A stretch of 64,000 nucleotides of DNA from assembly GCA_038046245.1 (NCBI GenBank), contig JBBSWO010000001.1, positions 12,761 through 76,760 of the forward strand, written 5' to 3'. The translations under genes and the position numbers were made by a program. Shown here in pieces: positions 11,334 through 37,377 of the stretch. Position 1 is the first letter of the stretch; every line of letters starts with the position of its first letter. A model generated the notes under the pieces. It ran no database searches, was not told where the DNA came from, and saw nothing but the letters and a program-made list of their open reading frames with translations. The DNA is from Nanobdellota archaeon (GTDB lineage: Archaea; Nanobdellota; Nanobdellia; Pacearchaeales; GW2011-AR1).

Positions 11334-11334
11334 A

Positions 11335-12225
11335 TTAAATTTTCTTTTCAAGCCTCTCTTTCAAAAATACTGCAAGAGGAACTGAAAATGACCTTGAAGT
11401 CACCAAATCTAAATAATCAGCCTCAGTCTTCTTAAAAATCTCCTCAACAAATTTTGCCTGCTCTCTCGCATATTTTTCATAAGGTGCTCTTGCAACTTTA
11501 GGATTTATTATAACCTGATCTCCAGATAGAGAGCTTTCAACAACTATCTCTCCCTCAACATTTGGTAAAGTTATGTCTAGAGGATCTCTGACCCTTACCA
11601 AGATAGTTTCAAATAATTCTGAAAGTAAAGTAAGTCTTTTTTCAGATTCAGGTGTGACCCTCAAGAAATCAGATATCAAAATAACAGAGTTTATTGATTT
11701 GTTTAGATATCTCATTGCAAAATCCAGCCCTTTGTCCAGATCAGTAACACCCCCATAAGTTTCTGTGTTAGTCATTAAGTCCATCAAAAACTGAAAATGT
11801 TTCTCACCGTTTCTGGGGGTTATAAAATGTTTTACATCATTGCTAAACAAAAAAAATCCCACCCTGTCACCCTCTTCCATTATAAGTTTTGCAAATGCAG
11901 CAGTCAACTCAGCAATAAATTCGCACTTTAATTTTTTCCCAGAACCAAAAACCATGCTGCTACCCACATCAATCAAAAACATTATCTTAAGGTCTCTCTC
12001 TTCCTTGTATTGTTTGACCAAAAGTTTTTGTGCCCTTGAACTTGATTTCCAGTCAATTTCAGAAGCATCATCATCTGGAGAAAAATCTCTGTACGATTCA
12101 AACTCTAATCCTTTGCCTCTAAATAAAATTCTGTAGATATCTCTCTTAAGCCTAAATTCCTTCATGACGGCCTTGAATTCAGTTATTGCTTCAGGAATGT
12201 CCGTGTTGAGTCGTTTTTCAACCAT
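11335..12225 (-). CDS. DUF58 family protein (MoxR-associated)
   Basis: ESYRDFSPDDDASEIDWKSSSRAQKLLVKQYKEERD matches the DUF58 signature (Y/R-x-GDD-x-R-x-IDWK-x-SAR). Located directly between the MoxR and VWA genes. Confidence 0.75.
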   Translation of the reverse strand: MVEKRLNTDIPEAITEFKAVMKEFRLKRDIYRILFRGKGLEFESYRDFSPDDDASEIDWKSSSRAQKLLVKQYKEERDLKIMFLIDVGSSMVFGSGKKLKCEFIAELTAAFAKLIMEEGDRVGFFLFSNDVKHFITPRNGEKHFQFLMDLMTNTETYGGVTDLDKGLDFAMRYLNKSINSVILISDFLRVTPESEKRLTLLSELFETILVRVRDPLDITLPNVEGEIVVESSLSGDQVIINPKVARAPYEKYAREQAKFVEEIFKKTEADYLDLVTSRSFSVPLAVFLKERLEKKI

Positions 12226-13398
12226 TCAAACCCCCACCATGAACAAAATTTCGTCTATAATTTTGTCAGAGGTAACTCCTTCTGCCCTTGCTTTATAGTT
12301 GAGAATAATTCTGTGTCTTAAGACATAATGCGCAACCGACTTAACATCATTTGGAATGACGTAATTTCTCCCGTTTATCAAAGCCCACGCCTTAGCAGCA
12401 ATGAAAAGTCCAATGTTTGCTCTAGGCGATCCACCCCATTCAATGTATTTCCCATGGGGAAAATCTTTTTTTCTCGTTTTATCGACTATCCTGACAATGT
12501 AATCTTTGACTTTCTCACTCATGAATATGCTTTTTGTCATTTCCTGCATCTTAAGTATTTTTTCTGGAGACAAAATCGGTTTGACATTAAAGCTTTCAAA
12601 ACTTCTTAACGTAGAATTGTCAATCATGATCATCTTTTCTTCTTCTTTTGTCGGATATCCCATCAATATCTTGAACAAAAACCTGTCAACTTGAGCTTCA
12701 GGAAGATCATAGACCCCGCTGGACTCCAAAGGATTATTGTTTGCCATGACAAAAAAAGGTTTTGGAAGAGGATAAGTCTCTTTGGCAATCGTAACCTGTT
12801 TCTCCTGCATCGCTTCAATCATAGCAGACTGGGTCTTAGGAGGACTTCTGTTTATTTCATCAGCAATTATAAAATTTGCAAATATCGGTCCCTTAATTGT
12901 TTCAAATCCTTTATTAGGAGTATAAGTCGTGATTCCAATGATATCACTAGGTAATAAATCAACTGTGAACTGGATTCTCTTTGCAGAACATCCAGAAGCC
13001 TGCGCAAGTGTTTTTACAAGAAGCGTCTTTGCAATTCCAGGAACTCCTTCAAGCAAAACGTGTCCGTCACAAAGCAAAGCGCACATGAACGCATCAACAG
13101 CGTCTTTCTGTCCGACAATCACTTTCCCAACTTCTTCTTTAACTTTAAAAATCAAATCGTAAGCTTCTTTTATTTCAACAGGGACCTCATCCAAGTTCAT
13201 CTTCTCAAGAACCGGCGCCTTGGAGCTCTTCAGTTTATTCTTTATTTTCAACTCAGCTCTGACAGAAAGAACTTCATTTATTTCTTCATCAGTATAATTA
13301 TTATTCTTTAGTATCCCTCTTATCTGCTCGTTATCATACCTCTGCTCAACTGCTTTTTTCACCCAAGCTTCTATTTCCCCTTTTTTTTGGTCATCCAT
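12226..13398 (-). CDS. MoxR-like AAA+ ATPase with ~85-aa N-terminal extension
   Basis: HVLLEGVPGIAKTLLVKTLA (Walker A), FIIADEINR (Walker B), RIQFTVDLLPSDIIG, typical MoxR. The ATG overlaps the stop of the upstream adhesin gene (ATGGATGA). Confidence 0.85.
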   Translation of the reverse strand: MDDQKKGEIEAWVKKAVEQRYDNEQIRGILKNNNYTDEEINEVLSVRAELKIKNKLKSSKAPVLEKMNLDEVPVEIKEAYDLIFKVKEEVGKVIVGQKDAVDAFMCALLCDGHVLLEGVPGIAKTLLVKTLAQASGCSAKRIQFTVDLLPSDIIGITTYTPNKGFETIKGPIFANFIIADEINRSPPKTQSAMIEAMQEKQVTIAKETYPLPKPFFVMANNNPLESSGVYDLPEAQVDRFLFKILMGYPTKEEEKMIMIDNSTLRSFESFNVKPILSPEKILKMQEMTKSIFMSEKVKDYIVRIVDKTRKKDFPHGKYIEWGGSPRANIGLFIAAKAWALINGRNYVIPNDVKSVAHYVLRHRIILNYKARAEGVTSDKIIDEILFMVGV

Positions 13399-16300
13399 AA
13401 CGACTTACACCTCTGTTATAATTATCAGAATACGTATTGTTTTTTATACTTTCCTGTGTGTACAAACCTTTTTTCCTTCTCAAATTGATTCTTTTGTAGG
13501 AATAAAAAGCGACTCCGACAACAAAAACGGCGATTGTGGAAACAGCAAGGTATCTGTAAAGCTTATTCTCGGCTATTTTGGATAAAACCGGCTTTCCGGC
13601 CTGCGCAATTGCATTTTTACATGCATTCAAAGCCTCATCTGCCTTTTGATTGGCCAATGCAGTGTTTCCCTGCGAGGCATATCTTTTTGCTTCATCAACT
13701 AATTCTTTTATTTCAATGCACTCCGGATTTGACGCAATAAATTCTTCTGTGAAAACAATTTTTTCCCCGACATTCTCTCCCTCTTTTATTGTCAAAAATA
13801 TTTTTCCCCAATCCATGTATCTTGGACTGCTTGAGGTAGCATTGACAGTGATCTCAAAAGTCCCGACGTTCTGCGTGTCAACATTGAGAATCATTGTCAA
13901 ATTTTCCTTTTTTCCAGGTTGCAAGCTGGCAAATTCTCTCTTGCTGAATGAGATGTTTACATCATTCGCCAAAACATTGTCTTTAGCAACACTTCCATCC
14001 AAATTTATCATATAGAGGGTTGTACTGCCGGTATTATACAATGTTAAAGGCACTTCTATCTTGTCTTTCTGATAAGCAGAGATAGGCCCAGGCATTATTA
14101 TTTTCAAAGAAACCGGAACCTCAGTGCTTCCACCTCCAGAAGAGCTTGAAGTAGAAGTTCCCGTTGGTGCAACAAATCTAACAGTAAAAGAATTGCTGGA
14201 AGCAGTAGAAGAGCTATCGCTACCATTGACAGTAATTAACCCAGCAACAGCAGTTGTAGCAGACAAAGTCATTGTAAATCCAGAAAAGCTAGAGGTTATT
14301 GATGAGGTATTACTAGACAGAGTAAACGTAGGGCTTTGGGCATAATAAGGGTCGTTATAATCTAGATCTGTAAAATAAGAACTCAGGTCCAAGGTTATAG
14401 CTGTGCCATAAGTTGTTGGTCCAAGATCTGCAATATGCCCGCTAAAACTTACATTATAATTTGTATGGGTTATGTTAAGCTTAAATACAATTGTCGTATT
14501 CAGCAAAGATGCGTTTGTCAAATTGCTGTTTGACGGATAAACAACTAAAGTTAAATTTTTCAATAAACCATAAGTTTCATCAGTCATGTTGGAAGTAAAA
14601 CTCCAGTTATAGCTTGTTCCATTCCCATAATATGAAAGATTGTCTCTTAACAAAGATGAGGTGTAATTACAATTGGAGCTTGAGCCAAGAGGACAATTTA
14701 TTCCATCAACATAAAAATCATAAGTTAGGTTATCTCCAACAGAATGATTGACTGTAAAATTAAGCACAGATGTTACATTTTCAGTTAAATTGAAGACGTA
14801 GCTTGCAGCAGGAGAGGTAATATTTGGAAGCCCGTAAACACTAACCCAAAAATCTCCATAACCTATAGCACCAGTTGAATCATTCACGCTTATGTTAAGG
14901 TGGTATTTTCCATCTTGGCTTGAATTAAATGTTAGATTTATTATTCCAGTAGTTGAATTAAAAACACTTGTGTTTAAAAAACTCAAAGTGCTACCATCAT
15001 TCAAAAACGAATAAGAGAAAGTGAAATTTGTATTAGTTGCAGAGGTGTCATTGCCATCTTCAGTGTCTGTAACATTCATATCGTAATAAAAACTCCTGTT
15101 CACGGCAGAAGATTGGTTTGATAAATTTGAAAGAACTGGGTTGTGGTTTATCGCTAAAACGCTGAGATTAAATGAAAACGACGTTGAGTTGCTTGTTGAG
15201 TCAGTCACATTTATAGTGATGTTATAATTTCCAACAGACGCTTTGTTTGGAACAAAAATTGCTTGATATTCTGTTCTGTTTGGATATTGTGTTGTTGGGA
15301 AAGAATTTGTCAAAGAGAAATTGAACAAAGAAGTATTAATGCCCTGAATTGTTAAATTTACGCTAAAGCTCTCATTATAAAATCTTCTTTGACTAGTAGG
15401 GATTTTCACATCATCGTCATCTATCCACAGCTTTATCACAGTATAATTGTCTTCCGTCACATTCAAGGATGCGTTCCCAGCAACCTGCGCAGGAGTGGCA
15501 TTGACTGTTTGAAGTTGTTGTATGCTCGGACCATCGTTTATGTTTAGTATTGTAAAATTAAATGAAGTTGTGTTTGTGAGATAGCTGTCATTTATTGTAA
15601 TGTTAACAATATGCTGGCCAATATCCACATCCAACCCCGTGAAATTTATTATTCCTCCGCTTGTCAGATTAAAATTATCGAATCTTGTGTCATTGGCAAA
15701 ACTGAATGTTAGAGTATTCCCATCAGCGTCGGTAACATTTTCTGAAAGATTAAGATACAAATTGCTGTTTTCATAAATTACAATAGTTGTGTTAAGAGGA
15801 GAATTCCATGTTGGTGCGCTGTTGTTTATTATTGTGAGATTAAATGTGGTGTACGTTGAAAAATTATAGCTATCTTTTGCAGTGACGTTAATAGTGTAGC
15901 TTCCAGCATCGCTAGAATTGGGAGTAAATCTTATTTCAGCGCTGGTCCTGTTTGTTCCCGCAACAGGCATCTGTAAAATCGTTATGCTAAAATTAGACAA
16001 GCTAAGCTGTTGAGTTGGATTAGAGCTGTTCAATATTGTTCTGGTAAAATTAATCGTTTCATTGAATCCCCCATAACTCGCATTTTTATCTGGAACAAGA
16101 GTGTCATTATCGTAAACGCTGAGGTTTATGACAGTCAACAAATTTATCGAAGTGTTGACGTTGCCCACTGAAGCGATAGATGGAGTGGCATTTATAGTTC
16201 TGTTTACATAAACATAAATCTGGGTTATGTTCGTGTCACCATTGCTGTCAGCCACAGTAAAGTTTATTGTCCAATTTCCGACTTCTGTTTTTTGAGGAGT

Positions 16301-17368
16301 CACATCTATAGTGGCATTATACTGGAAATTGCTTGAACTGTTTGTCATATTGGCAAAAAACCAGCTGGTATTAGAAACGCCACTCTGCCCTGCAGCATAA
16401 TTTCTCAATACGGCATAGCTTGAAATGTTCAGCGTATCACTTGGATTCTTAGATCTTATTGAAATGTTGCATGCGCCAGACTGATTTTCCTGGAAAATTT
16501 TATTCTGACAATTGCTTATGTCAACCGAAAGAGAGGCCAAAACATTAAATGTGACTATGGTTGAATAATTAGTTGTCTTATTCACTTTGTAGGTTGAGTT
16601 ATCACAATAAGCATGTGGGCAACTGTAATTTGACCCGTAATCCCTGACAGAAATATTCGCATAGTAGACTCCAACTTCATTATTTGTAGGAGTCATGTTT
16701 ATCAAAGCAGAGATATTGTCAAGGCTAGTGATGTTAAAACCCATATCAAAAAGCGAACAGTTTTGATTGTCAACTGTATAATTACTCCAGGCAGCATGGG
16801 TGCACCTTGTAGCATTGAAAGTCACAGTAAAATTCAAAGGATAATGACTTTCTTCGTCGGTGGCATTCAAGTAAGAGCTAAGAGGATTTGCATTTGAAAA
16901 ATTATATGTTGTGTTTATATTTGTAAAATTTGGTGCATCATTTGTGGCGTTGATTATAAATTCAAACGAAACAGTCGTAGAACCGCCGCCAGAGCTGGTA
17001 TTTGTAGCCTGTATTGGTATTGAAAAAAATCCTGTTTGGTTGTCATAGGTTGCATTAATTGTTAAATTTCCAACAGAGGAGTTAGTTATAGACATCCAAC
17101 GGGAAACAATGCTGGTATCTGAAACGTTATAAGTTCCACTTGAATTTGTGATAGTAATGTTATTATCAACAGTGTTAATTGCAAAACTAACGTCATTATT
17201 AAAATTAGTTATGTTGGCACTGAAATTATGATAGTACACAGAATCTTCTATTGTTGTATAATTGGTCGTATCAGAACCGCTTTTCCAGCTAGGAGGTGTT
17301 GCCAACACAAAACCTAAAAAGATTATTCCAACAAAAATTGTGAATAGTACAACTCTACTTTTTTCCAT
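13391..17368 (-). CDS. Large secreted, C-terminally anchored surface protein with cadherin/Ig-like repeats; extremely rich in N-X-S/T sequons
   Basis: N-terminal signal peptide (VVLFTIFVGIIFLGFVLA). Repeat-boundary motifs NDAPNFT, NSAPTWN, INDGPSI and INHNPVL, as in cadherin-like domains. C-terminal TM (YLAVSTIAVFVVGVAFYSY) plus basic tail. Confidence 0.8.
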   Translation of the reverse strand: MEKSRVVLFTIFVGIIFLGFVLATPPSWKSGSDTTNYTTIEDSVYYHNFSANITNFNNDVSFAINTVDNNITITNSSGTYNVSDTSIVSRWMSITNSSVGNLTINATYDNQTGFFSIPIQATNTSSGGGSTTVSFEFIINATNDAPNFTNINTTYNFSNANPLSSYLNATDEESHYPLNFTVTFNATRCTHAAWSNYTVDNQNCSLFDMGFNITSLDNISALINMTPTNNEVGVYYANISVRDYGSNYSCPHAYCDNSTYKVNKTTNYSTIVTFNVLASLSVDISNCQNKIFQENQSGACNISIRSKNPSDTLNISSYAVLRNYAAGQSGVSNTSWFFANMTNSSSNFQYNATIDVTPQKTEVGNWTINFTVADSNGDTNITQIYVYVNRTINATPSIASVGNVNTSINLLTVINLSVYDNDTLVPDKNASYGGFNETINFTRTILNSSNPTQQLSLSNFSITILQMPVAGTNRTSAEIRFTPNSSDAGSYTINVTAKDSYNFSTYTTFNLTIINNSAPTWNSPLNTTIVIYENSNLYLNLSENVTDADGNTLTFSFANDTRFDNFNLTSGGIINFTGLDVDIGQHIVNITINDSYLTNTTSFNFTILNINDGPSIQQLQTVNATPAQVAGNASLNVTEDNYTVIKLWIDDDDVKIPTSQRRFYNESFSVNLTIQGINTSLFNFSLTNSFPTTQYPNRTEYQAIFVPNKASVGNYNITINVTDSTSNSTSFSFNLSVLAINHNPVLSNLSNQSSAVNRSFYYDMNVTDTEDGNDTSATNTNFTFSYSFLNDGSTLSFLNTSVFNSTTGIINLTFNSSQDGKYHLNISVNDSTGAIGYGDFWVSVYGLPNITSPAASYVFNLTENVTSVLNFTVNHSVGDNLTYDFYVDGINCPLGSSSNCNYTSSLLRDNLSYYGNGTSYNWSFTSNMTDETYGLLKNLTLVVYPSNSNLTNASLLNTTIVFKLNITHTNYNVSFSGHIADLGPTTYGTAITLDLSSYFTDLDYNDPYYAQSPTFTLSSNTSSITSSFSGFTMTLSATTAVAGLITVNGSDSSSTASSNSFTVRFVAPTGTSTSSSSGGGSTEVPVSLKIIMPGPISAYQKDKIEVPLTLYNTGSTTLYMINLDGSVAKDNVLANDVNISFSKREFASLQPGKKENLTMILNVDTQNVGTFEITVNATSSSPRYMDWGKIFLTIKEGENVGEKIVFTEEFIASNPECIEIKELVDEAKRYASQGNTALANQKADEALNACKNAIAQAGKPVLSKIAENKLYRYLAVSTIAVFVVGVAFYSYKRINLRRKKGLYTQESIKNNTYSDNYNRGVSRYG

Positions 17369-17531
17369 TTTTCTCCTCCATTCTTTTCAAAAAATCATTG
17401 ACAGCCAGGTCAATAAATTGTTTTTTATTTACAAATTTAAGCCTGTTTTCATCCTTGCTTATGAAATCTTCCACTTCTTCAAATAGTTTAGAATCAATTT
17501 TTACAACACTCCCATCATTCTTTTTCCCCAT
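17355..17531 (-). CDS. Small ribbon-helix-helix (CopG/Arc-like) protein, 58 aa, not in the ORF track (below cut-off)
   Basis: Hand translation from the ATG at 17531: MGKKNDGSVVKIDSKLFEEVEDFISKDENRLKFVNKKQFIDLAVNDFLKRMEEKNGKK*. This is a strand-helix-helix pattern. The stop at 17355 overlaps the next gene's ATG (17368) by 14 nt. Confidence 0.55.
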   Translation of the reverse strand: MGKKNDGSVVKIDSKLFEEVEDFISKDENRLKFVNKKQFIDLAVNDFLKRMEEKNGKK

Positions 17532-17583: not shown

Positions 17584-19665
17584 TTAAACGTTTGGTCTCT
17601 TGGTAGAATCAATGATCTTTCTATATCTTATTATTCTTATAAGCTTGGTTATTATGAAGGCGATTATTATGAGTATGAGTAATAAAAAGCTATAAATTAT
17701 ATTCTTTCTCTTTAACAATGGAACAGCCGGCTCACATATCCAAGGACATGGCCCGCCACAATCAACACCCTCTTCACCCTGATTTTGCTTCTTGTCCGTA
17801 CAACTGGCACAAACGTTGCATGGCCCGCCACAGTCAATCAGAATCTCACAGTCTCCATCATGGCAATTCTTTATTCCATCACTACAGCTAGGATTTGGCG
17901 TGTAAAGACAAGATTGAACCTCTTCTGGTTTCTGGACTTTAGGAGAGCAGTTATTCAAGTCTGGACACACCCTTATCTGGAATCCACATCTGTCAGGAGT
18001 TAAAGCATTAGCCTGGCACTGATCGCTCACGATTCTGTAATCCTGTCTTGATAAAATCCCAAGATTCAACGAGGATTCAGCATTCTGGCAAACATTCCAA
18101 GAGGTACATCCCCATTGGGGTTTGCACGAAACTATTCCCCCGCCTCCACCGCCTCCGCCTCCACCACTTGGCTGACTACAGGAGACGACGGAAACACTAA
18201 AATTCCAGTAAACACTATCATTGAATTCTCCGTCGGTGATTTCCGCCTTGACATCATGTTTGCCAGAAATCCCGCAAGGGAAAACGTAATCAAAGATATC
18301 AGTGGAATTGCCCTCAAAATAACTTACCAAAACATTATCTATATACCAATATGAATCTGGAATCGTGAAATCAGGATCATACTTCGTTATGTTAAATCTG
18401 ATGTTCTGTGTTCCACTCACATTTATCACTGCGCTATTGTTTGGAGAAAACGCAGTTATTGTTGGAGGTCTATTTTGATTGGTGATAGTAAGCTGGAAAT
18501 ATTCACATGTTGTTTGAGCCAGGCCAGTTTGGTTACAGTAAGTTTGAATCAAAGGATGTCTGTTTGTCAATCCTGTATCACTAACACAAATGTTTACATT
18601 ATAAATCCCAACAGGAGTTGAGTTTGTCGACGTAAAATTAATTGTTCCAACAGTCCCATTTCTAGAAACATTAAACAAGTTGACAAGACTTCCCGTAGAA
18701 TTAACAATAGTGGTGTTAATGCTCAAACTTCCGTAATTCCAAGGAGGGGAGTATTCAATGTCACCAAAACTGAAATTTTTGTAAAGTGTAGAATTTTCTC
18801 CAGTATGCCATATCGTCTGAACGCCAATTGGATCAATCCAAGGAGGATTGTTGATCTCTACAAGAGTGACATTGGTAAGATTTGTATCTGAATACTGACC
18901 ATCACTGACGCTAATGCTAATTGGAAAATTTCTGAATCCAGTATTTACCCCAAAAAGGTTTGATTTGAAAAGGTTTCCAGAAAACATTGCAAAATAATTC
19001 ATTGTAACGGCTCTCCACAAATGTTGCGAGAAAAACAGTCCGCTAGGATCTCCAATATAAGACATGATGGGATCGTAAACATTGTCATCTTCATCAACAT
19101 CTGTTGCATTAAACAAATAGTTTAATGAGCTGCCCTCACAGACATAAATCGGATTGTCTATAGGCAATAGAATAGGCGCAGAATTGGGCACGCTGACAAA
19201 AAAAGTCACATTTGCAGAAGCAGTTTTTCCGCCAGAAGTTGAAGCATTTACAAAAAATGCATTACCCCATCTGACCGCAGCAAAGGTAGTATTAGAAGAA
19301 AATGCAACATCTCTATAAGCCCACCAATTATGTTTTAAATCATAAATAGAGTACGTCCAAAGAGAAATCGGAGTGTCTGAAGTAACATTTAAGTCTATGA
19401 TGTAAGGTTGGCCTATGCTGAAATTATAAGTTATATTCTGAGGGCTAAAAATTTTTAGGTATGGATTTCCTTCAATCGCAAATATCACGGAAGCAGTGGC
19501 ACTTGTGTCAAATCCCGTCGGCCTATGGGCTTTTTGAGAAAAAATGAGGTAGATATTCAAGACAATCACTACAATGAAAAAAGTAACTAAAAAATATTTG
19601 GTCACTCTAGAAAGAGAGTTTACTTTTTTGTAAAAAGAATTCCTTTTGCCTCTTTTGGTAGCCAT
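17584..19665 (-). CDS. Surface protein with cadherin-like repeats, Gly10 linker, Cys-rich C-terminal module and C-terminal TM
   Basis: N-terminal anchor (YFLVTFFIVVIVLNIYLIF). Motifs NSAPILLP, INNPPWIDP, NRPPTITAF. GGGGGGGGGG at 18136..18165. Two ...DCGGPC... cysteine motifs. C-terminal TM IIYSFLLLILIIIAFII. Confidence 0.8.
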   Translation of the reverse strand: MATKRGKRNSFYKKVNSLSRVTKYFLVTFFIVVIVLNIYLIFSQKAHRPTGFDTSATASVIFAIEGNPYLKIFSPQNITYNFSIGQPYIIDLNVTSDTPISLWTYSIYDLKHNWWAYRDVAFSSNTTFAAVRWGNAFFVNASTSGGKTASANVTFFVSVPNSAPILLPIDNPIYVCEGSSLNYLFNATDVDEDDNVYDPIMSYIGDPSGLFFSQHLWRAVTMNYFAMFSGNLFKSNLFGVNTGFRNFPISISVSDGQYSDTNLTNVTLVEINNPPWIDPIGVQTIWHTGENSTLYKNFSFGDIEYSPPWNYGSLSINTTIVNSTGSLVNLFNVSRNGTVGTINFTSTNSTPVGIYNVNICVSDTGLTNRHPLIQTYCNQTGLAQTTCEYFQLTITNQNRPPTITAFSPNNSAVINVSGTQNIRFNITKYDPDFTIPDSYWYIDNVLVSYFEGNSTDIFDYVFPCGISGKHDVKAEITDGEFNDSVYWNFSVSVVSCSQPSGGGGGGGGGGIVSCKPQWGCTSWNVCQNAESSLNLGILSRQDYRIVSDQCQANALTPDRCGFQIRVCPDLNNCSPKVQKPEEVQSCLYTPNPSCSDGIKNCHDGDCEILIDCGGPCNVCASCTDKKQNQGEEGVDCGGPCPWICEPAVPLLKRKNIIYSFLLLILIIIAFIITKLIRIIRYRKIIDSTKRPNV

Positions 19666-19702: not shown

Positions 19703-20179
19703 TTAATATATTACTGCAACAAGCACGGATTCAATATCTTGAAGCCTTATTTTACCATCATCGATATTATTATTGTCGCCTTTCGTAACAAAATAAACTC
19801 CATTTCCATCATAATTTTTTTCTATAACTCTGTGCACTATCAACTCTCCGTTTTTCCTAAACGTGACTATGTCTCCAACATTCACTTCGCCTTCAGTTTT
19901 TGGAGTTATCACAACACCTGTCGAGTTCACACCCAAAGTCGGAGCCATACTTCCAGAATCTTCATATCTTATGAAAGACGGCTTCTCAATAAAAAAAGTC
20001 ACACTGGTATTGTTTGCAGTTATGGAACTTTCATTCAAAAAATCAGATGGAGACTCAAAATTGCCGTTTGAAATAACAAATCCAGATATTATCCCTCTGT
20101 CTAAGACATATAATATGAACACTGCATTAAGAATTAATATTGCTAGGACAAAAATTAAGATTAGGTTTATAGTCTTCAT
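19703..20179 (-). CDS. Type I signal peptidase, archaeal/ER (SipW/Sec11-like, S26B)
   Basis: N-terminal TM, catalytic-Ser box SGSMAPTL, His box IVHRVIE, and TKGDNN near the C-terminus. Confidence 0.8.
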   Translation of the reverse strand: MKTINLILIFVLAILILNAVFILYVLDRGIISGFVISNGNFESPSDFLNESSITANNTSVTFFIEKPSFIRYEDSGSMAPTLGVNSTGVVITPKTEGEVNVGDIVTFRKNGELIVHRVIEKNYDGNGVYFVTKGDNNNIDDGKIRLQDIESVLVAVIY

Positions 20180-20210
20180 AAGAACCAGTATTAAACCTTA
20201 TTTTTAAGAA

Positions 20211-20669
20211 TTATTGTTTTCTAAGATCTCTTTTGTAAGTTGCAGTAAAGTTTCCGGTATAGTTGCCAAGGGATTGATTGGTAAAAACAATTGTCGAGAC
20301 ACTTATTTCCTTCATCTCATCCTTTTTCAGATAAATCGGGCTGTCAAATACTATAAAGTCCTTGACCTGGCCAGAAACTTCAAAGTCAACCTTTACCCCA
20401 AAATTATAATAGTTTTGTATTTTTATTTTCTTTTCAGCACTCGATTCTAAGGGAGTAATCCCAAAATCGAGAGTTTGATTCTGAACAGCAAGACCGCCAA
20501 CCTTACCTATCCTGACAATTATGGGAATTTCTTTAGTCCCAAGAATATCGTTCCTGTTTACAAAAGATATTATAAACAATGTCAAAACAGCTAAAGAAAA
20601 CAATATGGCTGAAATGACGTAAAAACTTTTCAAACTCTTATTTTTTGCGAGGTCTCTTAAGCGTTCCAT
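20211..20669 (-). CDS. Membrane-anchored beta-sandwich protein (152 aa), related to the N-terminal domain of the 390/399-aa paralogues
   Basis: N-terminal TM. LDFGITP...KIKIQN...VDFEVSGQVKDFIVFD resembles GITPGRTTLDFEPG...FSVINS...VVFVVKGELASYI of 22957..24156. The ATG start overlaps the upstream gene by 32 nt. Confidence 0.65.
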   Translation of the reverse strand: MERLRDLAKNKSLKSFYVISAILFSLAVLTLFIISFVNRNDILGTKEIPIIVRIGKVGGLAVQNQTLDFGITPLESSAEKKIKIQNYYNFGVKVDFEVSGQVKDFIVFDSPIYLKKDEMKEISVSTIVFTNQSLGNYTGNFTATYKRDLRKQ

Positions 20670-21810
20670 TTTCTTTTATATATCTAATTGCCCTTATAAA
20701 TTTTACAGCAGCCAAAGTCAAGATAATCAAAACTCCAATACCTCCGATTATAAACCAAATTAGCATAGACGGTCTATTGTAAAATTGAACCTTAACAATC
20801 TTATTTGTCTCTCCCCTTTCGTCTCTCCCATAATAGTTTAGCGTGATATTTGCATCGTAGAATCCCTCACTGAAATTTGAGGTATCCAGATATCCCGTAA
20901 TTGTTTTCTTCTCCCAAGCCGTCAGAGAGGTTGATGTTGTTTTAAAAGAAGCCAAACTCACTGAATTGTTTAGAATTTCAACATCTGCAAAGACTCCATC
21001 AATGTCGTTGTTCCAATTGCTCAAGATTTCAACGTCAAACGACTGCAGCTTGCTTATGGGGATGAAATTGGAGTAGTTAATTATACTTATACTGAGATTG
21101 CCTATCTTAAAATTAAATCGGTCCTTTGCCACATCCCCATAATCGACTAACGCGACTGCAGTGTAATTTCCAGAGTTCAAGCCAGAGGTGTCAAACTGCT
21201 TCTGCAAAGCAATTGATTCTTGGCTCCTCAAAAGTCTCTTTTGAAAAGAGAATTCCTTAACTTGGGTCTCTCCGGAATATATCTCAACTTTGGGCGTAAT
21301 AGTCACGTCTTCCGTCCCCTTGCTGGTTATGCTCAATTCAAAATTGATAGGCTCACCAACATTCGCATCATGCCCAGTCAGTCCTATCTCAACATATTTT
21401 CCAGGATAAGGCACATAAACATCGATAGCCCCAACAACAACGACTCTTGTCCCTATAAACCCTGAAGCCAATTCAGGATCAACTTTCTGACCAACAACTA
21501 TGCCAAGTCTATGCCTTCCGGGTTTTTCAATAACATGAGGAAATTTAATTGTTGCATCAAACTCGCCTCCACCCACAAGATTTGTTTTGTCAAAGGAAAT
21601 ATATTGTGCCAGATCACCTTCCGCAGAAACTTCCACTTCCATATTGGCAGCAGAGAGAACATTATAATGGATAGTTTCCACACTATCAGGGATAAAATTA
21701 TATGTCTCTATTGCTGGTGTAAGGCCCAAGGACGAAACATTTTGCAAAGTGATTATAATAACTGCTGACACAATTAAACAAATAAAAAACCCCCCTCTTT
21801 TTTCTGGCAT
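20638..21810 (-). CDS. Secreted multi-beta-sandwich protein with C-terminal TM anchor (paralogue of 22957..24156)
   Basis: Signal peptide ending SSLGLTPA, shared motif VYVPYPGKYVE, C-terminal TM (LIWFIIGGIGVLIILTLAAV) plus basic tail. Confidence 0.7.
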   Translation of the reverse strand: MPEKRGGFFICLIVSAVIIITLQNVSSLGLTPAIETYNFIPDSVETIHYNVLSAANMEVEVSAEGDLAQYISFDKTNLVGGGEFDATIKFPHVIEKPGRHRLGIVVGQKVDPELASGFIGTRVVVVGAIDVYVPYPGKYVEIGLTGHDANVGEPINFELSITSKGTEDVTITPKVEIYSGETQVKEFSFQKRLLRSQESIALQKQFDTSGLNSGNYTAVALVDYGDVAKDRFNFKIGNLSISIINYSNFIPISKLQSFDVEILSNWNNDIDGVFADVEILNNSVSLASFKTTSTSLTAWEKKTITGYLDTSNFSEGFYDANITLNYYGRDERGETNKIVKVQFYNRPSMLIWFIIGGIGVLIILTLAAVKFIRAIRYIKENGTLKRPRKK

Positions 21811-22014
21811 AGTAATTAAAGTAAAAAATTATTTTTATATCTTACTGTTTTTGATTTTGCCATCTTAACCGCTTTTGTTGAGTGTTAATAATTTTAGAAT
21901 AATCTCTTATTACAGAACCCATCAACAGAATAAACAAAATTAAATCACAACAAAGAATCAAAGCAATGTAGCATAATCTACAAACACTATCGAGAATAAT
22001 ATAAAAAAATAAAA

Positions 22015-22680
22015 CTAAGGAAGATACCCAGTAGCAGTGATTTGTGCAGTCCTATATCCTGATTGAGCAGGAGCGTTGTTCGAAACATTCAGCTGGAAAT
22101 CTATTCTCAATTCATCTCTGTCTGGGTTGAATTGCGTTTGGTTGCAAACTCTGACTACCTGATTAGTCTGAATATCCGTGTATGAAAGTGGTGTAAGAGT
22201 GGCATCACAGGTGTTAGGCTCACTCCCATCAGCAATGTTAAACTCCGAAAGCTTCCACTTAAATGTAGAACCGAAATTTGCACCATTGTCAAGCAAGAGT
22301 GAAGCATTTCTGTTAGAAGTTAAATTAATAGCTATAGGCAAAGTTGATCCGAATGTAGTAAGTATTAATCCCCTATTCTGGGTTTGCCAACCAGCACCGC
22401 ATATTATTGGGGATGCAGTGTTATTCGTGTCTAATATTGCATATAAACCAGTACCACACGAAGTGTTAACATAACCAGAACTCCAGTTGATTAAGTTATT
22501 TGTAAAATTAAGACTAATAACTTGTTGAATTTCTAAGGTAACATTTCCTTGTCCTGATGAAGCAAATCCAGAACTCTTAAGATTTAATGTACTGAAAACC
22601 CCAATCACGGAAGTGATTACAGCAAGGACGGCAACAACCATCAAGACTTTTGTAACTCCCGATGTCTCTTCTTCAGCCAT
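22015..22680 (-). CDS. Secreted beta-rich protein with TasA/camelysin-like (SipW-substrate-like) N-terminal region; candidate fibre subunit
   Basis: The hydrophobic segment is followed by GVFSTLNLKSSGFASSGQGNVTLEI. Compare the Bacillus TasA/CalY pattern ...(A/Y)F(S/N)D...F(A)(S/A)GTLDL. A type I signal peptidase gene lies 1.8 kb downstream on the same strand. Confidence 0.6.
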   Translation of the reverse strand: MAEEETSGVTKVLMVVAVLAVITSVIGVFSTLNLKSSGFASSGQGNVTLEIQQVISLNFTNNLINWSSGYVNTSCGTGLYAILDTNNTASPIICGAGWQTQNRGLILTTFGSTLPIAINLTSNRNASLLLDNGANFGSTFKWKLSEFNIADGSEPNTCDATLTPLSYTDIQTNQVVRVCNQTQFNPDRDELRIDFQLNVSNNAPAQSGYRTAQITATGYLP

Positions 22681-22880
22681 TATTGTATTCCTCCTCTTTC
22701 TGATGTTGGAGCGATTTTAAATGAAATCTGACCGGTTGATGGCCCCTGATTGTTAATTGTCTTCTCAACAGTTTTTTGCGAACCGATAAGATTAGTAGAA
22801 AATGTTAATACAACGCTAACGACAGAAAGTATAATTGTTATCAACAACAATATCACCACAATTTTTTGACTGTTAACCAT
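22680..22880 (-). CDS. Small secreted/anchored protein (66 aa) sharing the post-TM FST motif
   Basis: TM then LTFSTNLIGSQK, similar to GVFSTLNLKSSG in the next gene. Its stop overlaps the next gene's ATG (TAATG). Confidence 0.55.
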   Translation of the reverse strand: MVNSQKIVVILLLITIILSVVSVVLTFSTNLIGSQKTVEKTINNQGPSTGQISFKIAPTSERGGIQ

Positions 22881-22956: not shown

Positions 22957-24156
22957 TCATTTTTTTCTCTTCATTAATTTTCTTATCAAAACAAACCATA
23001 CAATATTTGCAACAATCAATCCAATCACTAAAATTATAAGCAAGTTATTAACATTCAATCCGCCTTTACCCTTGACGATAACTTTTCCTGTGACCCCAAT
23101 AATCTCGAGGCTGTCGCTGCCTATTTTAAGCTGTATATTTTTCTCGACAGAACTTTCTCCATATTTCAAAATTAATTTTCCATCATAAGTTCCTTGTTTA
23201 ACTCCAACCGTATCCCAATATGCAACCATTTCTTCTTTACTCAAGGAATCTATATCATAATTAGGAGATTTGAAATCAGCCATGATTTCTCCCTGCGTGT
23301 TGTAAACCAAAATGTTCAAATAAACGTCCTTAAGCTGCTCTGACCACTTGCTTTCGACCATTGCATTGAACTTCGCAATCTCGCCAAGCCTAAAATCTTT
23401 GACATCTACGGCAATTATGTCAATGAGTTTCTGCCCAACTTCAAACGGCTTCTCAACTTTAGTAACCTCGTTGTCATAAACAACAGAAACAACAGCAAGA
23501 TATTTTCCAGAATTGACGCCGCTGCTGTCCCACTCAGCAATGAGTTCTTTTCTCTGCAAACTTAGAAGTGAATCGGAATTGGATTCAATCGTTGCAACTT
23601 TTTCATTTAAAGAAGTGTAAACGTCCACAACAGCCTTGATGTTCCCAATATCTAATTTACCACGATTTATTGACGGAACCAAAAACAGGGTTTTCCCTTT
23701 GTCATTAATCACATTGACCTCTGCTTCGACATATTTATTGGGGTAAGGAACATAGATATGCAATTGCGTCGCAACCCCAACGGTTGCTCCGACAAAGGTC
23801 CCCTGCTGTTTGATATCTTTAGGAAGCTCCAAAGCGACAACTTCTGCCTCGTACAATCCGGGCTTGTCAAATTTTTCTGGAAGATTAAAAGTATAGCTAA
23901 ATGACCTAGATTCATCGCTAGACAAAAAGTCTTCATACGCTTTGTTCATCGTTATGTAACTTGCCAATTCCCCTTTCACAACAAAAACAACACTCATGTC
24001 TTTATGTTCTGAATTGATTACTGAAAAAGCGACCTCCCTGTGCATGCCAGGCTCAAAATCCAAAGTCGTTCTTCCAGGAGTTATTCCTATTGCTGAAATA
24101 AAACTGGTTAAAGCTAACAAAAGCACAAAACCCAAGATTATTTTTTTATTTGTCAT
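22957..24156 (-). CDS. Secreted multi-beta-sandwich protein with C-terminal TM anchor (paralogue of 20638..21810)
   Basis: Signal peptide ending ISAIGITPG, motif IYVPYPNKYVE, C-terminal TM (LLIILVIGLIVANIVWFVLI) plus KRKK tail. Confidence 0.7.
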   Translation of the reverse strand: MTNKKIILGFVLLLALTSFISAIGITPGRTTLDFEPGMHREVAFSVINSEHKDMSVVFVVKGELASYITMNKAYEDFLSSDESRSFSYTFNLPEKFDKPGLYEAEVVALELPKDIKQQGTFVGATVGVATQLHIYVPYPNKYVEAEVNVINDKGKTLFLVPSINRGKLDIGNIKAVVDVYTSLNEKVATIESNSDSLLSLQRKELIAEWDSSGVNSGKYLAVVSVVYDNEVTKVEKPFEVGQKLIDIIAVDVKDFRLGEIAKFNAMVESKWSEQLKDVYLNILVYNTQGEIMADFKSPNYDIDSLSKEEMVAYWDTVGVKQGTYDGKLILKYGESSVEKNIQLKIGSDSLEIIGVTGKVIVKGKGGLNVNNLLIILVIGLIVANIVWFVLIRKLMKRKK

Positions 24157-24647
24157 TTTTGCCCTCCTGTGTAAGCCCCATTATTTTCAACTTCCGTCGA
24201 TGTTCCAACTTCAAGAGGAATGCTTGTAGTAATTCCGCCCTTAGTTTTTTTGACCGCAACTGCAACATTCCCTGAATTTTCCAAAATGTTTTTTTCTTGG
24301 CCTGTTCTTAAATTCAACCCAACCTGCCCTTCTATTGTAAAGGTTTTAATCTCGCTTTCTCTAAGCAAACTCTTGACTTTCCAATAATAAATCCTAGGAG
24401 GCAAAGTGATCTCATCCCCTTCCTGCAGGATGATTGGATCTGTGAACTGCTCATCAAGCGAGATATAAACTTTATCACCATTTTGTATTTCAAAAACAAA
24501 ATCAGGATCAGAAACGACCTGGCCAGAAATTGGAGAAATTGCTTGAGGAGAGTTTAAGAAAAATAAGTACACAAAAATTCCAGCAACCAAAACAGCCTCG
24601 GCTATCAAAATCTTTTTCTCCAATCCGATTTTATTTTTTGTTTCCAT
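24153..24647 (-). CDS. Membrane-anchored hypothetical protein (164 aa)
   Basis: N-terminal TM (ILIAEAVLVAGIFVYLFFL). Start overlaps the giant gene's stop (TAATG) and its stop overlaps the next ATG (ATGA). Confidence 0.6.
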   Translation of the reverse strand: METKNKIGLEKKILIAEAVLVAGIFVYLFFLNSPQAISPISGQVVSDPDFVFEIQNGDKVYISLDEQFTDPIILQEGDEITLPPRIYYWKVKSLLRESEIKTFTIEGQVGLNLRTGQEKNILENSGNVAVAVKKTKGGITTSIPLEVGTSTEVENNGAYTGGQK

Positions 24648-27600
24648 TATTCTGCTAAGCTTGCTGTGAAATTTATAGTTGAACTTCTTATGCCGGCACC
24701 TTCCTGCGCCCCGGGAACAGTTACATTAATGTCGATTTCTGCAGCGTCATTTGCATTCTGCCACCCAAGATATGCAAGTGCGTTCTTCACCTCTCCTTGA
24801 GTGGGAACATTCTTCCAGGCTGTCTGGCTTAAAAACCAATTAAAGCTCCCAGGCTCACTCCTGTTGTCAAATTTGTACTGGAAGTATTGTGATGGATTTG
24901 GCTGAGTTAGCCATAAGTTTGTCGCGTTAATGCTCACATTTACCAGGACATTTCCCAAATTCTCCAAAGCAAATGGCAGAGGAGAACCGTCTGATGTGTC
25001 ATTGATTTCATTTGGCAGCATCAATCCAAAATTAACTCTCAGATTTGTCAGATTGATGTCAATCAAAGCAGTTACATTGAATCTCCATTCATCGCTCCAC
25101 GTTCCAAAGCCAACGGTGTCATTCGCTCTAACTTTCCAAGTATAGTAATAATTTCTGTCGGCCAAATATTTCAAAGGAGTTAATAAAGTGTAATTTTCTA
25201 TAACAGGAGAGCCAGTATTCACAATAATATACCTGTTGTCATCAGTACAAGTACTTCCATCTTGATAATAACAAGTTATATTTATTTCATAAGCTTTGAT
25301 ATCTGATTTCCCGTCTAAATCAGTTCCATTCCAAACAAGCATTGGAGTTCTATTTATGAGGGGGGTATTGTTTAAAGGAGAGTAAAGAGTCACAGTTGGT
25401 AAAGTGTTTCCGATGAATATGCTTGTGTTATTTACTTTAGTTTGATATCCTCCTTTCTCGCATGTGGTATTGTAAAGATAAATACCTGTGCTTACGAATG
25501 TCCTATTGTAGCTCCACAACCTCGAGGTTGTGTTCCATATCATGTCTGCAGAAACAGAATCGTTGAATGCTATCTTGCATGAAACTGGTTGCGTAATGTA
25601 TACTATTCCGTTCGTGCTGAGCGCTACGACATCTGCTATACCATCTTTATTAGAATCACCAGTATCGATTGCCTCGCTGTAACCCAGATCATTACCTATA
25701 CTTCCAACATTCCAGACATATGAAAGCAAAGTTGTTGCATTTGTGGCATTGATATCAAATGCGTTGAGGGTTGAGCTATCACCACCAGTGATAAGCTCTT
25801 GCTGTATATCATCATCAATATTTGCGATTTTCATATTATAAACAACGCTAAGTGTTGGTAAGATGTATGTCCACAGCACTGCATTACTATTATTAATTGC
25901 ACGCAAATTATTATGCTGAGGATTTTGTGAGTCTAAATAAACAAATAAAAGGTCGTCTTTGCCGTCTCCATTAAGGTCTGTCTTCACCAAATCTCTTGAG
26001 ACCCAAGGAGTGTAGCTACTGAACGGACTAAAACTTACAATACTTCCACTTGTCAAGTTCGAAAATCTTATTCCATCACCCCCACCGCTGTTATATCTTC
26101 CATAAAGAATTTCTGAAATATTATCATTGTTGATATCCATAAAGATCGAAGCATCTTCTCCAGTATCAGTATTATTCCAAATTTGTGATCCATTTGTGGC
26201 ATTGATTAAGAAAAGACGCCCCCCCAGACTTCCGGCTATATAATCAGCTACACCATCAATGTTTTTATCATAGAGCTGCAATTCAACAAGTGCGCCAAGT
26301 GCTGTGTTGCTCCAGAACTGTTGTCCTGAACTATTGTATGCAAATAGTCCATTACCTGAACCTAAACCAAAAATAATATCAAGTTGTCCATCTCCATTGA
26401 TATCGCCAAGTTCAAGTGACTCCCCCCAAGATACTCCAGGATCTATGGTTCTTTCAAGTCCCCCAGCCATATTAAAAATAAATAAATCTCCATCATAATA
26501 ATTAATTCCTAATATTTCACTCTGGTTATCTTTGTCTATATCGCCAAGACGTATTGCATATTTAGGATATGGAATTGTGGCAGAAACCCATAATAAACTT
26601 CCATTAAATGCAAATGCTGCAAAGTTTGATCCATTTCCAAGCACATAACCATCAGGTATACCGTCTGTGTTCATATCAATAACTTTGATTGAATGAGAGA
26701 TGTCATTAGTATCCAAATCAGTGCTATTGTGAATCAATTGTTTCACATCCCCAATAACTCCAGAGCTGTAATTCGCAGTGAAAGTTATCGGCTGATTAAT
26801 AACAGGAGCAGATTGTGTAGTTAATATACTCGTAGTGTAGTTTTGGATTATTATCGCTGTTGAACTAGAATTTGACTCAAAAATGTCAAAAGCAACAATG
26901 CTGCAATTAATATTATCATCGTGATAAGTAAGATCCCTTGAAAGATTAACAGATGCTAAAGTGTCATTTTGATATCCTGAAACAGTTTGGTTTAAAATGA
27001 CTGCTCCATTCCTACGCCAGCTGACATTTACATTAAGATTTGTTTGATCTGCGTCATTTATATTAAAAGTACAGTTAAGACTGTCTTTGGTATAAGCCGG
27101 GCTTGGAGTTATTGCCAAACTTTTTATTTGTGGAGCAGTATTCCGGACATGCAAAACCCTTACTCCTGTAGAGTTTGCTCCACCATAGCTGTCATTTGCA
27201 TATCCATAATACGTGTAATCTCCCAATGTTAGATTTGTCTGGTTGGCAAAGAAATTCCATTTGTCAAAATCATATTTGTACAAATTTGAAAGATAAAGCT
27301 GTCTAACTTCTTGTGCAGACAAAGATCTGTTCCAAATTCTAACTTCGTCGATGCTTCCAATAAATCCATCTGGAGATAAGGTTGAACTTCCTATCAAAGT
27401 CGTCCCTCCAATTAAAAAGTTATCATCATTGCTAGCTATTACATTAGTTAAACCATAACCTTGACTAAATTCTCCACCATTTACATAAAATGTAAGATAT
27501 TTGCTCTCATTAATAGTAGCAGTCAAGTACACCCATTGGTTTAAAGGAGGTATATAGTTAGACCTATAATCCGCAACACCAAATGCCGTGAAGGTCAGAT

Positions 27601-37225: not shown

Positions 37226-37270
37226 TAGTTACCTTTAAAAAGCATTTTTCTTTTTGAGATGTGTACCTTT

Positions 37271-37343
37271 GCCCCGTTAGTTCAGTGGCCAAGAATGCGG
37301 CCCTTTCACGGCCGTGACCCGAGTTCGAATCTCGGACGGGGCG
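37271..37343 (+). tRNA. tRNA-Glu (anticodon UUC)
   Basis: Hand fold. Acceptor GCCCCGT/ACGGGGC. D arm GTTC-AGTGGCCAA-GAAT. Anticodon arm CGGCC-CTTTCAC-GGCCG. Variable TGAC. T arm CCGAG-TTCGAAT-CTCGG. Discriminator G. A TTTAAAAA box lies ~30-37 nt upstream. Confidence 0.9.
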
Positions 37344-37377
37344 TTAAACTTTAAAACATCAAAGCCTTCTATCTTTC

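Follow-up and report, generated by a model that had tools for sequence, protein, structure and literature searches.

A 64-kb stretch of DPANN archaeal DNA (contig JBBSWO010000001.1 of a Nanobdellota archaeon, ~35% G+C; "the window" below means all 64,000 nucleotides of it) carries the core of a conserved gene cluster, putatively for a surface assembly, that has so far been found only in DPANN archaea. The genes are arranged in the order giant protein, p164, p399, p66, p221, p390, p152, (signal peptidase), p693, p1325, MoxR, DUF58 and VWA (Table 1). The best explanation, to which a probability of about one half is given, is that p221, a protein of 221 amino acids (aa), is exported, trimmed and polymerized by strand exchange, with the 66-aa p66 as anchor and the giant protein attached through its C-terminal domain. 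The products would probably be strand-exchange fibres of a TasA-superfamily-like kind, although p221 itself is very probably not a member of the TasA family, and the cluster may be how the tiny DPANN cells anchor giant surface proteases. An earlier note on this region had proposed a TasA-like fibre locus served by a SipW-type signal peptidase, an interpretation that is partly supported. Its three open reading frames lie where it had placed them and on the same strand, complete with the strings GVFSTLNLKSSGFASSGQGNVTLEI in p221 and LTFSTNLIGSQK in p66; the peptidase gene does lie 1.8 kb downstream on that strand, and the surroundings are as described, with a 3292-aa S8 protease, MoxR, DUF58 and VWA proteins, and anchored proteins of immunoglobulin (Ig) fold.

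The minus strand from 10.4 to 34.5 kb is a single co-directional gene run in which several genes overlap, and nearly every protein of the cluster is membrane-anchored at one end. None of the core proteins rises above the curated threshold of any Pfam or NCBIfam model. The order p164, p399, p66, p221, p390-like, p152, p693, p1325-like recurs with little variation in 32 GTDB loci (loci carry L numbers below) and in metagenome contigs; the 32 loci were retrieved through the motif ENIGNVNV, which biases them towards that p221 subgroup, and further contigs were found through individual proteins. Across genomes labelled Pace-, Woese-, Nano- and Parvarchaeota, the order of 8–13 genes is kept down to ∼25–30% protein identity, and expansions of p221 paralogues occur in the loci. 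The MoxR, DUF58 and VWA genes follow the p1325 homologue in L009, L011, L016, L019 (where only MoxR of the trio is within the retrieved stretch), L025, L037 and contig P0201, and are adjacent but inverted in L032, L035 and L036. With its BatA-type VWA protein, this trio at the cluster end resembles a Bat-type operon.

p221 has an N-terminal transmembrane or signal helix (residues 7–33), SSGFA at 36–40, the strand GNVTLEI at 45–51 and then a beta-sandwich of ∼165 residues. It contains about eight N-glycosylation sequons and, as reported earlier, has four cysteines (C158 and C179 are invariant in the family) and ends in ITATGYLP. A word-indexed search gave six relatives, and an exhaustive HMMER search gave 1184 clusters at 50% identity with E≤1e-3 (698 with E≤1e-10), with members of 190–250 aa that match end to end. 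All named sources are DPANN (Pacearchaeota, Woesearchaeota, Nanoarchaeota and Parvarchaeota). With this number of family clusters, and the same order in dozens of genomes, the gene cluster is among the most conserved surface loci of Pace-, Woese- and Nanoarchaeota-type genomes. In a 150-sequence alignment the hydrophobic helix is followed by the motif [TS]37-G38-[FY]39-A40 (G38 in 144 and A40 in 122 of 150; TG[FY]A below), then by 3–4 polar residues and G45 (132 of 150)-x-[VA]-N-[LVI]-T-[IV]. Further family motifs are I-N-F-T, I-N-W-G-S-G-x-V, G-L-x-L-E-N-x-G-N-x-N-V and a C-terminal T-I-T-A-T-A. The element FST, which had been taken as a shared part of the signal region, belongs to the end of the helix and varies even at 50–65% identity; other homologues have ISTLNL, FLNLQK, VYHLPT or FTFLTV. 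The proposed likeness to the signals of SipW substrates was not picked up by the models either: p221 matches no Pfam or NCBIfam model at E≤1, including Peptidase_M73 (PF12389) and the SipW-cognate signal (TIGR04088), and p66 likewise lacks a TIGR04088 match at E≤1. No Pfam family is matched by more than five of the 150 relatives, and all such matches are weak, none being to a pilin family; scans of the eight neighbouring proteins with Pfam and NCBIfam found no pilin family, Peptidase_M73 or TIGR04088. A class III (type IV pilin) signal was considered and rejected, the N-termini MKTDNALM, METTKVLM and MAEEETSGVTKVLM having no [KR]-[GA] site before the helix. The proposed donor-strand region also holds conserved N-x-T sequons, N48-L-T50 (Asn in 91 of 150) and N58-F-T60 (Asn in 111 of 150). 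On a strand, N48 and N58 would face away from the hydrophobic side, which suggests conserved glycosylation there.

A structural model of p221 by AlphaFold (AF2), built on a 49-sequence alignment, reached a predicted local distance difference test score (pLDDT) of 82.5 and a predicted template modelling score (pTM) of 0.70; a 7-sequence alignment gave only pLDDT 49.5. The model has the helix at 7–33, a low-confidence linker at 35–39 and a ten-stranded beta domain, and residues 44–56 (GNVTLEIQQVISL) are unpaired in the monomer. [quoted passage not shown] Generic jelly-rolls (IBDV/birnavirus VP2, cupin, CBM22) make up the remaining matches, at a probability of ≤0.41. The modelled p221 thus appears to have the fold class of donor-strand-complemented pilins; the evidence is real but modest, and homology is not proven by it.

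p66 consists of a transmembrane helix, a variable linker of ∼20 residues, the strand GQISFKIAP and a short tail. Its 30 aligned homologues share only the helix, the linker and one short strand with the consensus GxVxLxIEP, the tail being short and acidic or Gly-rich; TG[FY]A is absent. Residues 2–59 align with residues 1–54 of p221 (hhalign probability 94%, E 1.6e-7), which places GQISFKI on GNVTLEI, and a p221 hidden Markov model (HMM) built without p66 sequences recovers the p66 homologue in almost every locus. As judged from these profile comparisons, p66 copies the N-terminus of p221 in truncated form, comprising the transmembrane helix and the first strand. The N-terminal likeness of the two proteins that had been claimed is therefore upheld at the profile level, but not for FST, which is limited to the closest relatives. 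p66 lies directly upstream of p221 in essentially every locus, and in L019 and L037 the two genes have been duplicated together. At the inward-facing positions 3, 5 and 7 of the strand, cognate p66/p221 pairs from 30 dereplicated loci are more alike than shuffled pairings, with a BLOSUM sum of 243 against 211±7.2 (0 of 20000 reached 243). At position 5, beta-branched residues in p221 and in p66 tend to occur together (7/2 vs 1/20, Fisher p 1.3e-4). This covariation is uncorrected for phylogeny. p66 is proposed as a candidate membrane-anchored strand donor, acting as anchor or nucleator.

An oligo-T run directly after p221, a TATA-like box before p66 and a separate box (ATATAAAAATAA) for p390 suggest that p66 and p221 form a transcription unit of their own, separately promoted and terminated, apart from p390. 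AGAGGA, which is Shine-Dalgarno-like, stands 6 nt before the p66 ATG. A scan for sigma-70 promoters and terminators gave counts equal to the shuffled expectation, the sigma-70 model not being meaningful for an archaeon.

The giant protein has a cytoplasmic N-terminal motif, a transmembrane helix followed by NFTGKVSVEL, an S8 subtilase domain, two LamG domains, FG-GAP repeats and a p221-like C-terminus (Pfam: Peptidase_S8 3.2e-34, Laminin_G_3 7.9e-35, FG-GAP_3). Its last ∼110 residues match positions 109–214 of the p221-family HMM (38.7 bits, E 1e-13), and a p221-like C-terminal domain is also present in large upstream genes of L006, L026, L029, L030 and L019 (E 1.6e-10 to 5e-5). The giant is proposed to be the distal cargo or tip of the assembly. 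A second giant protein (>2453 aa), with an S8 subtilase, two LamG and pentaxin-like domains, runs off the start of the window. Both giants have, before the transmembrane helix, the unusual cytoplasmic motif (F/Y)K+(Y/F)I+R(N/D)GK.(F/Y)GPY.YES...YL, for which there is no Pfam match.

The peptidase matches the archaeal signal peptidase I model TIGR02228 (63.2 bits, cutoff 51.85), has intact SGSMAPT (Ser), VHRV (His) and GDNN boxes, and begins with a transmembrane helix and an ISGF motif. By these features it is an intact signal peptidase I (SPase I) of the archaeal/endoplasmic reticulum (ER) type. The earlier description as a SipW/Sec11-type signal peptidase I is borne out to that extent; against the Bacillus SipW equivalog NF046067 the score (45.1 bits) is below the cutoff of 190. 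All archaeal SPase I enzymes are of the ER/SipW type, so "SipW-type" says little in an archaeon. This is the sole SPase match in the window. By profile search, 8 of ∼38 loci have an SPase gene within the cluster. It takes one of two positions, following p152 in the window, L001, L009, L015, L037 and contig P0201, and standing between p399 and p66 in L006 and L023. SPase homologues with 40–45% identity on four long DPANN contigs lie in a housekeeping context that is mutually conserved and comprises a TrmB-family regulator, SPase I, the signal-peptide peptidase SPP (PF06550), an aCPSF1-like beta-CASP nuclease and a proteasome subunit. One further homologue sits elsewhere, in neither the cluster nor the SPP block. 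In a neighbour-joining tree the enzymes of the window, L001, L015, P0201 and P0214 form one clade that includes no enzyme of known housekeeping context, and those of L006, L009 and L023 are found among the housekeeping ones. We read this as an ancestral location next to SPP and at least two moves of the gene, or of a copy of it, into the cluster. Such repeated entry points to a functional connection, although most clusters would depend on a peptidase encoded elsewhere.

TG[FY]A conforms to the −3/−1 rule for SPase I, with Gly at −3 and Ala at −1. The sites of TasA and CalY, T-[WF]-A with the cut after Ala, resemble it. The AbpX site, which has experimental support and is cut between ...LTYA and QWSE..., likewise has an aromatic residue at −2 and Ala at −1 (bioRxiv 10.64898/2026.01.04.697558 supplement). 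From these resemblances we infer that p221 is probably cleaved.

In the mechanism proposed, p221 would be exported with its long N-terminal signal or anchor helix and would probably be cut by a type I signal peptidase at or next to TG[FY]A. The cut would leave the amphipathic strand GxVNLTI within a few residues of the new N-terminus, free to insert into the beta-sandwich of the next p221 (donor-strand complementation, as in AbpA, TasA, threads, cannulae and Tafi), giving a chain, presumably a fibre rather than a short oligomer. p66 would keep its transmembrane helix and offer a copy of the strand, filling the groove of the cell-proximal subunit and so tethering or nucleating the fibre, a role functionally like that of the TapA N-terminal strand or the Tafi anchor TafF. 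At the presumed far end, the giant S8-protease/LamG protein would join the polymer through its p221-like C-terminal domain and be displayed there. The cluster-encoded peptidase would be an optional, dedicated or relocated processing enzyme, other genomes using the housekeeping SPase, while p152, p399 and p390, with their ASH domains, would be accessory, as would the MoxR/DUF58/VWA proteins. Rather more doubtful is the further step of reading p221 polymer, p66 tether, distal protease/lectin cargo, recruited SPase and possible help from MoxR/DUF58/VWA as a host-directed device for attachment or attack.

Several observations weigh against this mechanism. The fold matches are weak in absolute terms, with E 1.1e-3 at best, TM scores of 0.26–0.46 and root-mean-square deviations of 6.5–14 Å, though the low scores and large deviations are in part due to the 40-residue helix and the extended strands. 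TasA (5OF1/5OF2) is missing from the top 50 Foldseek matches, and the match to AbpA, the other structure named in the earlier note, is weak. None of the 150 p221-family members matches PF12389 at E≤0.1; PDB searches with sequence profiles from two family alignments gave a chance match (E 0.89) and then none, and when the family was compared by hhalign with a single sequence of AbpX, the probability was an uninformative 0.3%. The supposed linkage of the peptidase to the locus, real in the loci listed above, is absent from the retrieved DNA of ∼30 of 38 clusters (flanks often being short). A weak match to p221 HMM positions 45–76 precedes the C-terminal match of the giant, and the match in L006 spans 45–213; because the C-terminal domain of the giant thus seems to hold a counterpart of the strand region, the simple picture of a tip without a donor strand may be wrong.

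The same applies to the proposed cleavage site. A transmembrane helix followed by [ILV][ST]G[FY] is also found in the in-cluster peptidases (GIISGFVIS, GGISGFVL), which presumably keep their anchor, and in p693, both giants, p164 and an unrelated 111-aa open reading frame. Among the SPase homologues P0196–P0205, L001 and L015, (G)I[ST]GF[VF] is conserved right after the helix, with ∼45 residues from helix to Ser box, and p693 homologues often lack a small residue at the second position after Gly. Classical AxA signals are also present in the window, on p399, p390, p1325 and others, so TG[FY] may mark a second class of processing site or, since it also follows the transmembrane helix of peptidases and other anchored proteins, may simply be a membrane-interface motif. 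The 111-aa frame, which is Cys-rich and lies outside the cluster, continues after its N-terminal transmembrane helix with KISGNYFTFE.

The main alternative, possible but less likely, is a membrane-bound hetero-oligomeric surface complex in place of a fibre. p221, p66, p693 and the giant would then keep uncleaved anchors and pair their G-x-V-x-L-x-I strands near the membrane, strand addition or exchange would hold together a stalk or patch that retains the giant, and the peptidase would process only p399, p390 and p1325. The occurrence of [ST]G[FY] after the helix in peptidases and many anchored proteins suggests just such an interface or hinge motif, and the anchoring of nearly every cluster protein at one end, the lack of an own peptidase in most clusters and the classical signal peptides of p399, p390 and p1325 are consistent with it. 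So is the conservation of MoxR/DUF58/VWA alongside, modules of this kind usually assisting the maturation of complexes. However, the best fold matches of p221 are subunits of true polymers, its paralogue expansions and the duplicated p66-p221 units are like major/minor pilin sets, TG[FY]A agrees with the SPase I rule and is similar to the site of AbpX, and p66-p221 looks separately promoted and terminated, as expected for an abundant structural subunit.

That there is no system at all is unlikely. p221 and its neighbours would in that case be secreted or anchored glycoproteins of beta-sandwich fold (adhesins or proteins associated with an S-layer) that have nothing to do with one another, and the peptidase a housekeeping Sec11 homologue there by chance. 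The SPases in the TrmB-SPase-SPP-aCPSF1-proteasome context, the presence of one SPase only in the window and the weak E-values of the fold matches are compatible with this, but it would leave unexplained the 8–13 gene order, the internal homologies (p66/p221, giant C-terminus/p221, p693 N-terminus/p221 and p152/p399) and the recruitment of the peptidase at two cluster positions. Very improbable is a divergent true member of the TasA/camelysin family (Peptidase_M73), with a SipW-cognate signal and processed by a SipW orthologue: p221 itself fails both models named above and its 150 relatives fail PF12389, the peptidase falls far below the SipW cutoff, no TasA structure is among the top 50 fold matches, and FST, which had been equated with AF(S/N)D, is not conserved. 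What speaks for it is a superficial likeness of GFASSGQGNVTLEI to TFASGTLDLS of TasA, a strand motif "h-x-h-x-N-x-G" common to the p221 family (LVLENIGNVNV) and AbpX (FTLENVGTIPA), and AbpA as the top fold match, a protein for which homology to TasA has been argued (PMC9245690).

The archaeal donor-strand filaments AbpA, AbpX, threads, cannulae and Tafi are now grouped as the TasA superfamily, and TasA-superfamily loci often hold an SPase I together with genes for tip proteins, minor subunits and anchors (bioRxiv 10.64898/2026.01.04.697558; PMC12337348; PMC9245690). Since such archaeal loci are already described, the general idea of a TasA-like locus is of a known kind, and a view that peptidase-linked archaeal loci are not on record is outdated by the Tafi and AbpX loci (PMC12337348; bioRxiv 10.64898/2026.01.04.697558). 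The best match among solved structures comes from the AbpA/AbpB pili of Pyrobaculum calidifontis (7UEG; PMC9245690), whose subunit AbpA is likewise a secreted beta-sandwich/jelly-roll of ∼200 aa with a Sec signal and then an N-terminal strand, and whose gene has as neighbours ∼400-aa multi-beta-domain proteins and single-pass membrane proteins with beta-rich ectodomains. In contrast to the DPANN cluster, that locus has no dedicated peptidase, strand-only mini-protein, pilin-ended giant protease or MoxR/VWA module; AbpA has no detectable sequence similarity to p221, and the lineages differ (Thermoproteota vs DPANN). The TasA-TapA-SipW system of B. subtilis (PMC9674648, PMC10151520) shares a donor strand right after the signal cleavage site (putative in p221), an ER/archaeal-type SPase I in the locus, and an accessory protein, TapA, with an N-terminus resembling the donor strand of TasA (PMC9674648) in the way that p66 resembles the strand of p221. 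Unlike TasA, p221 fails the Peptidase_M73 and SipW-cognate signal models; TapA is large and secreted whereas p66 has 66 residues and a membrane anchor, and the peptidase is present in a minority of DPANN clusters.

Major and minor subunits, a tip, a transmembrane anchor and a co-located SPase I are combined in the loci of the haloarchaeal Tafi (TafA/E, TafC, TafF, TafD, TafG; PMC11821415, PMC12337348) and of AbpX, as would be the case in this cluster. AbpX, at 217 aa, has T-Y-A at the end of its long signal, and its gene neighbours that of a TIGR02228 peptidase (bioRxiv 10.64898/2026.01.04.697558). In Tafi, however, the anchor TafF is a transmembrane helix with a jelly-roll domain whereas p66 offers a bare strand, export is by Tat rather than Sec, and the tip candidate here is a 3292-aa protease; sequence similarity to Tafi or AbpX was not detected. 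The accessory protein DUF5305 of the Tafi/AbpX loci did not turn up in the scans of the window, none of which was aimed at it.

Chaperone-usher pili (Fim, Pap, CS20 and Csu) recall the cluster in other ways. Several of their pilins are among the fold matches of p221, and a cargo or adhesin with a C-terminal pilin domain together with N-terminally extended subunits parallels FimH/FimG/FimA. The single domain of p152 and the first domain of p399/p390 are Ig domains (ASH) of the PapD-like clan of Pfam, a likeness that does not extend to homology with PapD itself. There is no outer membrane here, and p152 carries one ASH domain on a membrane anchor where a chaperone-usher system has a two-domain chaperone in the periplasm. 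Pfam scans of the window proteins found no usher-like protein and no two-domain PapD-type chaperone, only single ASH-type Ig domains. The giant protein recalls the SPEARE-type surface proteins of DPANN, reportedly described by Hamm et al. in 2019 as giants with serine protease and adhesion-type domains that are thought to act on host cells; both are DPANN proteins of several thousand residues with this combination of domains. We know of no C-terminal pilin-like domain or strand-exchange anchoring cluster described for SPEARE-type proteins.

Apparently new are the DPANN lineage, a family without sequence link to the described members, the 66-residue strand-only partner, the giant protease bearing a subunit-like domain, and the conserved association with MoxR/VWA. 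In a full-text literature search for donor-strand pili in DPANN, a general review was all that came up. DPANN archaea are ultrasmall, mostly uncultured, and live attached to other cells, and the cluster may bear on their means of attaching to hosts and exploiting them. If p221 undergoes donor-strand exchange, TasA-superfamily-type filaments would extend to a third major archaeal lineage, and the cluster would offer a strand-only protein as minimal anchor, together with a testable route by which giant protease/adhesin proteins are mounted on the cell surface. A bare donor strand as anchor and a giant enzyme as tip would then be an assembly principle undescribed for any pilus. DPANN are unmentioned in the AbpX paper (bioRxiv 10.64898/2026.01.04.697558).

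Table 1. Features of the cluster and its surroundings; positions are in the window unless another locus is named (ORF, open reading frame).
Feature	Position	Strand	Basis or remark
Giant surface protein, 3292 aa	24647..34525	-	ORF; Pfam
p221-like C-terminal domain of giant	24650..25117	-	~aa 3137-3291; p221-family HMM
p164	24153..24647	-	first small gene of cluster, conserved
p399	22957..24156	-	paralogue of p390
TATA-box-like TTTATAAA	22924..22931	-	~45 nt upstream of p66 start codon; read from sequence
p66 (66 aa)	22680..22880	-	ORF; 1-nt overlap with p221
p221 (221 aa)	22015..22680	-	ORF
Oligo-T run TTTTATTTTTTTA	22002..22014	-	directly after p221 stop codon; putative archaeal terminator
p390	20638..21810	-	ORF; paralogue of p399
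p152	20211..20669	-	ORF; transmembrane helix and ASH domain
Signal peptidase (158 aa)	19703..20179	-	ORF; TIGR02228
p693	17584..19665	-	ORF; conserved position
58-aa soluble protein	17355..17531	-	ORF, between p693 and p1325
p1325	13391..17368	-	ORF; signal peptide and Ig-like repeats
MoxR AAA+ ATPase	12226-13398	-	Pfam
DUF58 protein	11335-12225	-	Pfam
BatA-type VWA membrane protein	10410-11351	-	Pfam
Second giant protein	1-7361	-	runs off window start
DAC (diadenylate cyclase) protein	35594-36187	+	
tRNA-Glu	37270-37344		
AbiTii-domain protein	37591-38502	-	
111-aa Cys-rich ORF	45480-45815	-	outside cluster
SPase, housekeeping context	L038 10001-10486		
SPase, housekeeping context	L039 10001-10417		
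SPase, housekeeping context	L040 10001-10498		
SPase, housekeeping context	L041 4695-5174		
~340-aa protein	L007 3400-4419		downstream of p152
~340-aa protein	L008 4239-5261		
~340-aa protein	L012 12195-13232		
~340-aa protein	L018 12238-13254		
~340-aa protein	L031 7439-8104		
59-aa gene	L037 12711-12890		at position of 58-aa protein
p66-p221 pair and surroundings	L004 2732-4865, 9817-13832		773-kb DPANN contig

The remaining members of the cluster are mostly anchored beta-rich proteins. p164 has an N-terminal transmembrane helix and a small beta-rich ectodomain, with homologues at the same position in 16 loci and no Pfam match. p399 has a standard signal peptide (cut between FISA and IG), an ASH/PapD-like first domain, a CARDB-like middle domain, a third beta domain and a C-terminal transmembrane anchor; p390 has a signal peptide, three beta domains and the same kind of anchor (hhalign probability with p399 100%). 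The middle domain of both gives weak PDB profile matches to 2kl6 and 3idu. p152 consists of an N-terminal transmembrane helix and a single Ig-like ASH (ASPM/SPD-2/Hydin) domain, its profile of 24 homologues matching Hydin (2.3e-11), FAP65 (2.1e-9) and CEP192 (3.4e-4) in the PDB, with weak Pfam matches to Cep192_D4, ASH and HYDIN Ig. The first domain of p399 is a homologue of this one (hhalign 91.7%). p152 and p164 were considered as relatives of p221 and rejected (hhalign probability <5%).

p693 begins with a transmembrane helix, PTGF and the strand SVIFAIEG, followed by Ig-like repeats, a Cys-rich region and a C-terminal transmembrane anchor, and is paralogous to most of p1325, which has a signal peptide, numerous Ig-like repeats with abundant N-x-S/T sequons and a C-terminal transmembrane anchor. 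The N-terminus of p693 resembles that of p221 (hhalign probability 72%); apart from this helix, TGF and strand, a p221-like domain is absent from p693 and p1325. Downstream of p152, some loci encode proteins of ∼340 aa with a transmembrane helix, a strand like that of p66 (for example GTVQLVIES), a linker rich in Pro, Thr and Ser, and an ASH-type Ig domain, so the strand module appears to be reused on other cluster proteins.

In L004 a p66-p221 pair occurs without p390, p152 and p693, flanked by two paralogous Cys-containing secreted proteins of ∼410 aa, and a second p221 copy lies in divergent orientation beside a 458-aa S8 protease. The 58-aa protein between p693 and p1325 is soluble and charged, with no Pfam match; that it is a small DNA-binding regulator is a guess. 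A 59-aa gene takes its position in L037 and in contig P0201. The DAC protein and the AbiTii-domain (abortive-infection-like) protein lie beside tRNA-Glu, the only tRNA gene in the window. The window also codes for an archaeal-type threonyl-tRNA synthetase with the archaea-specific editing domain.

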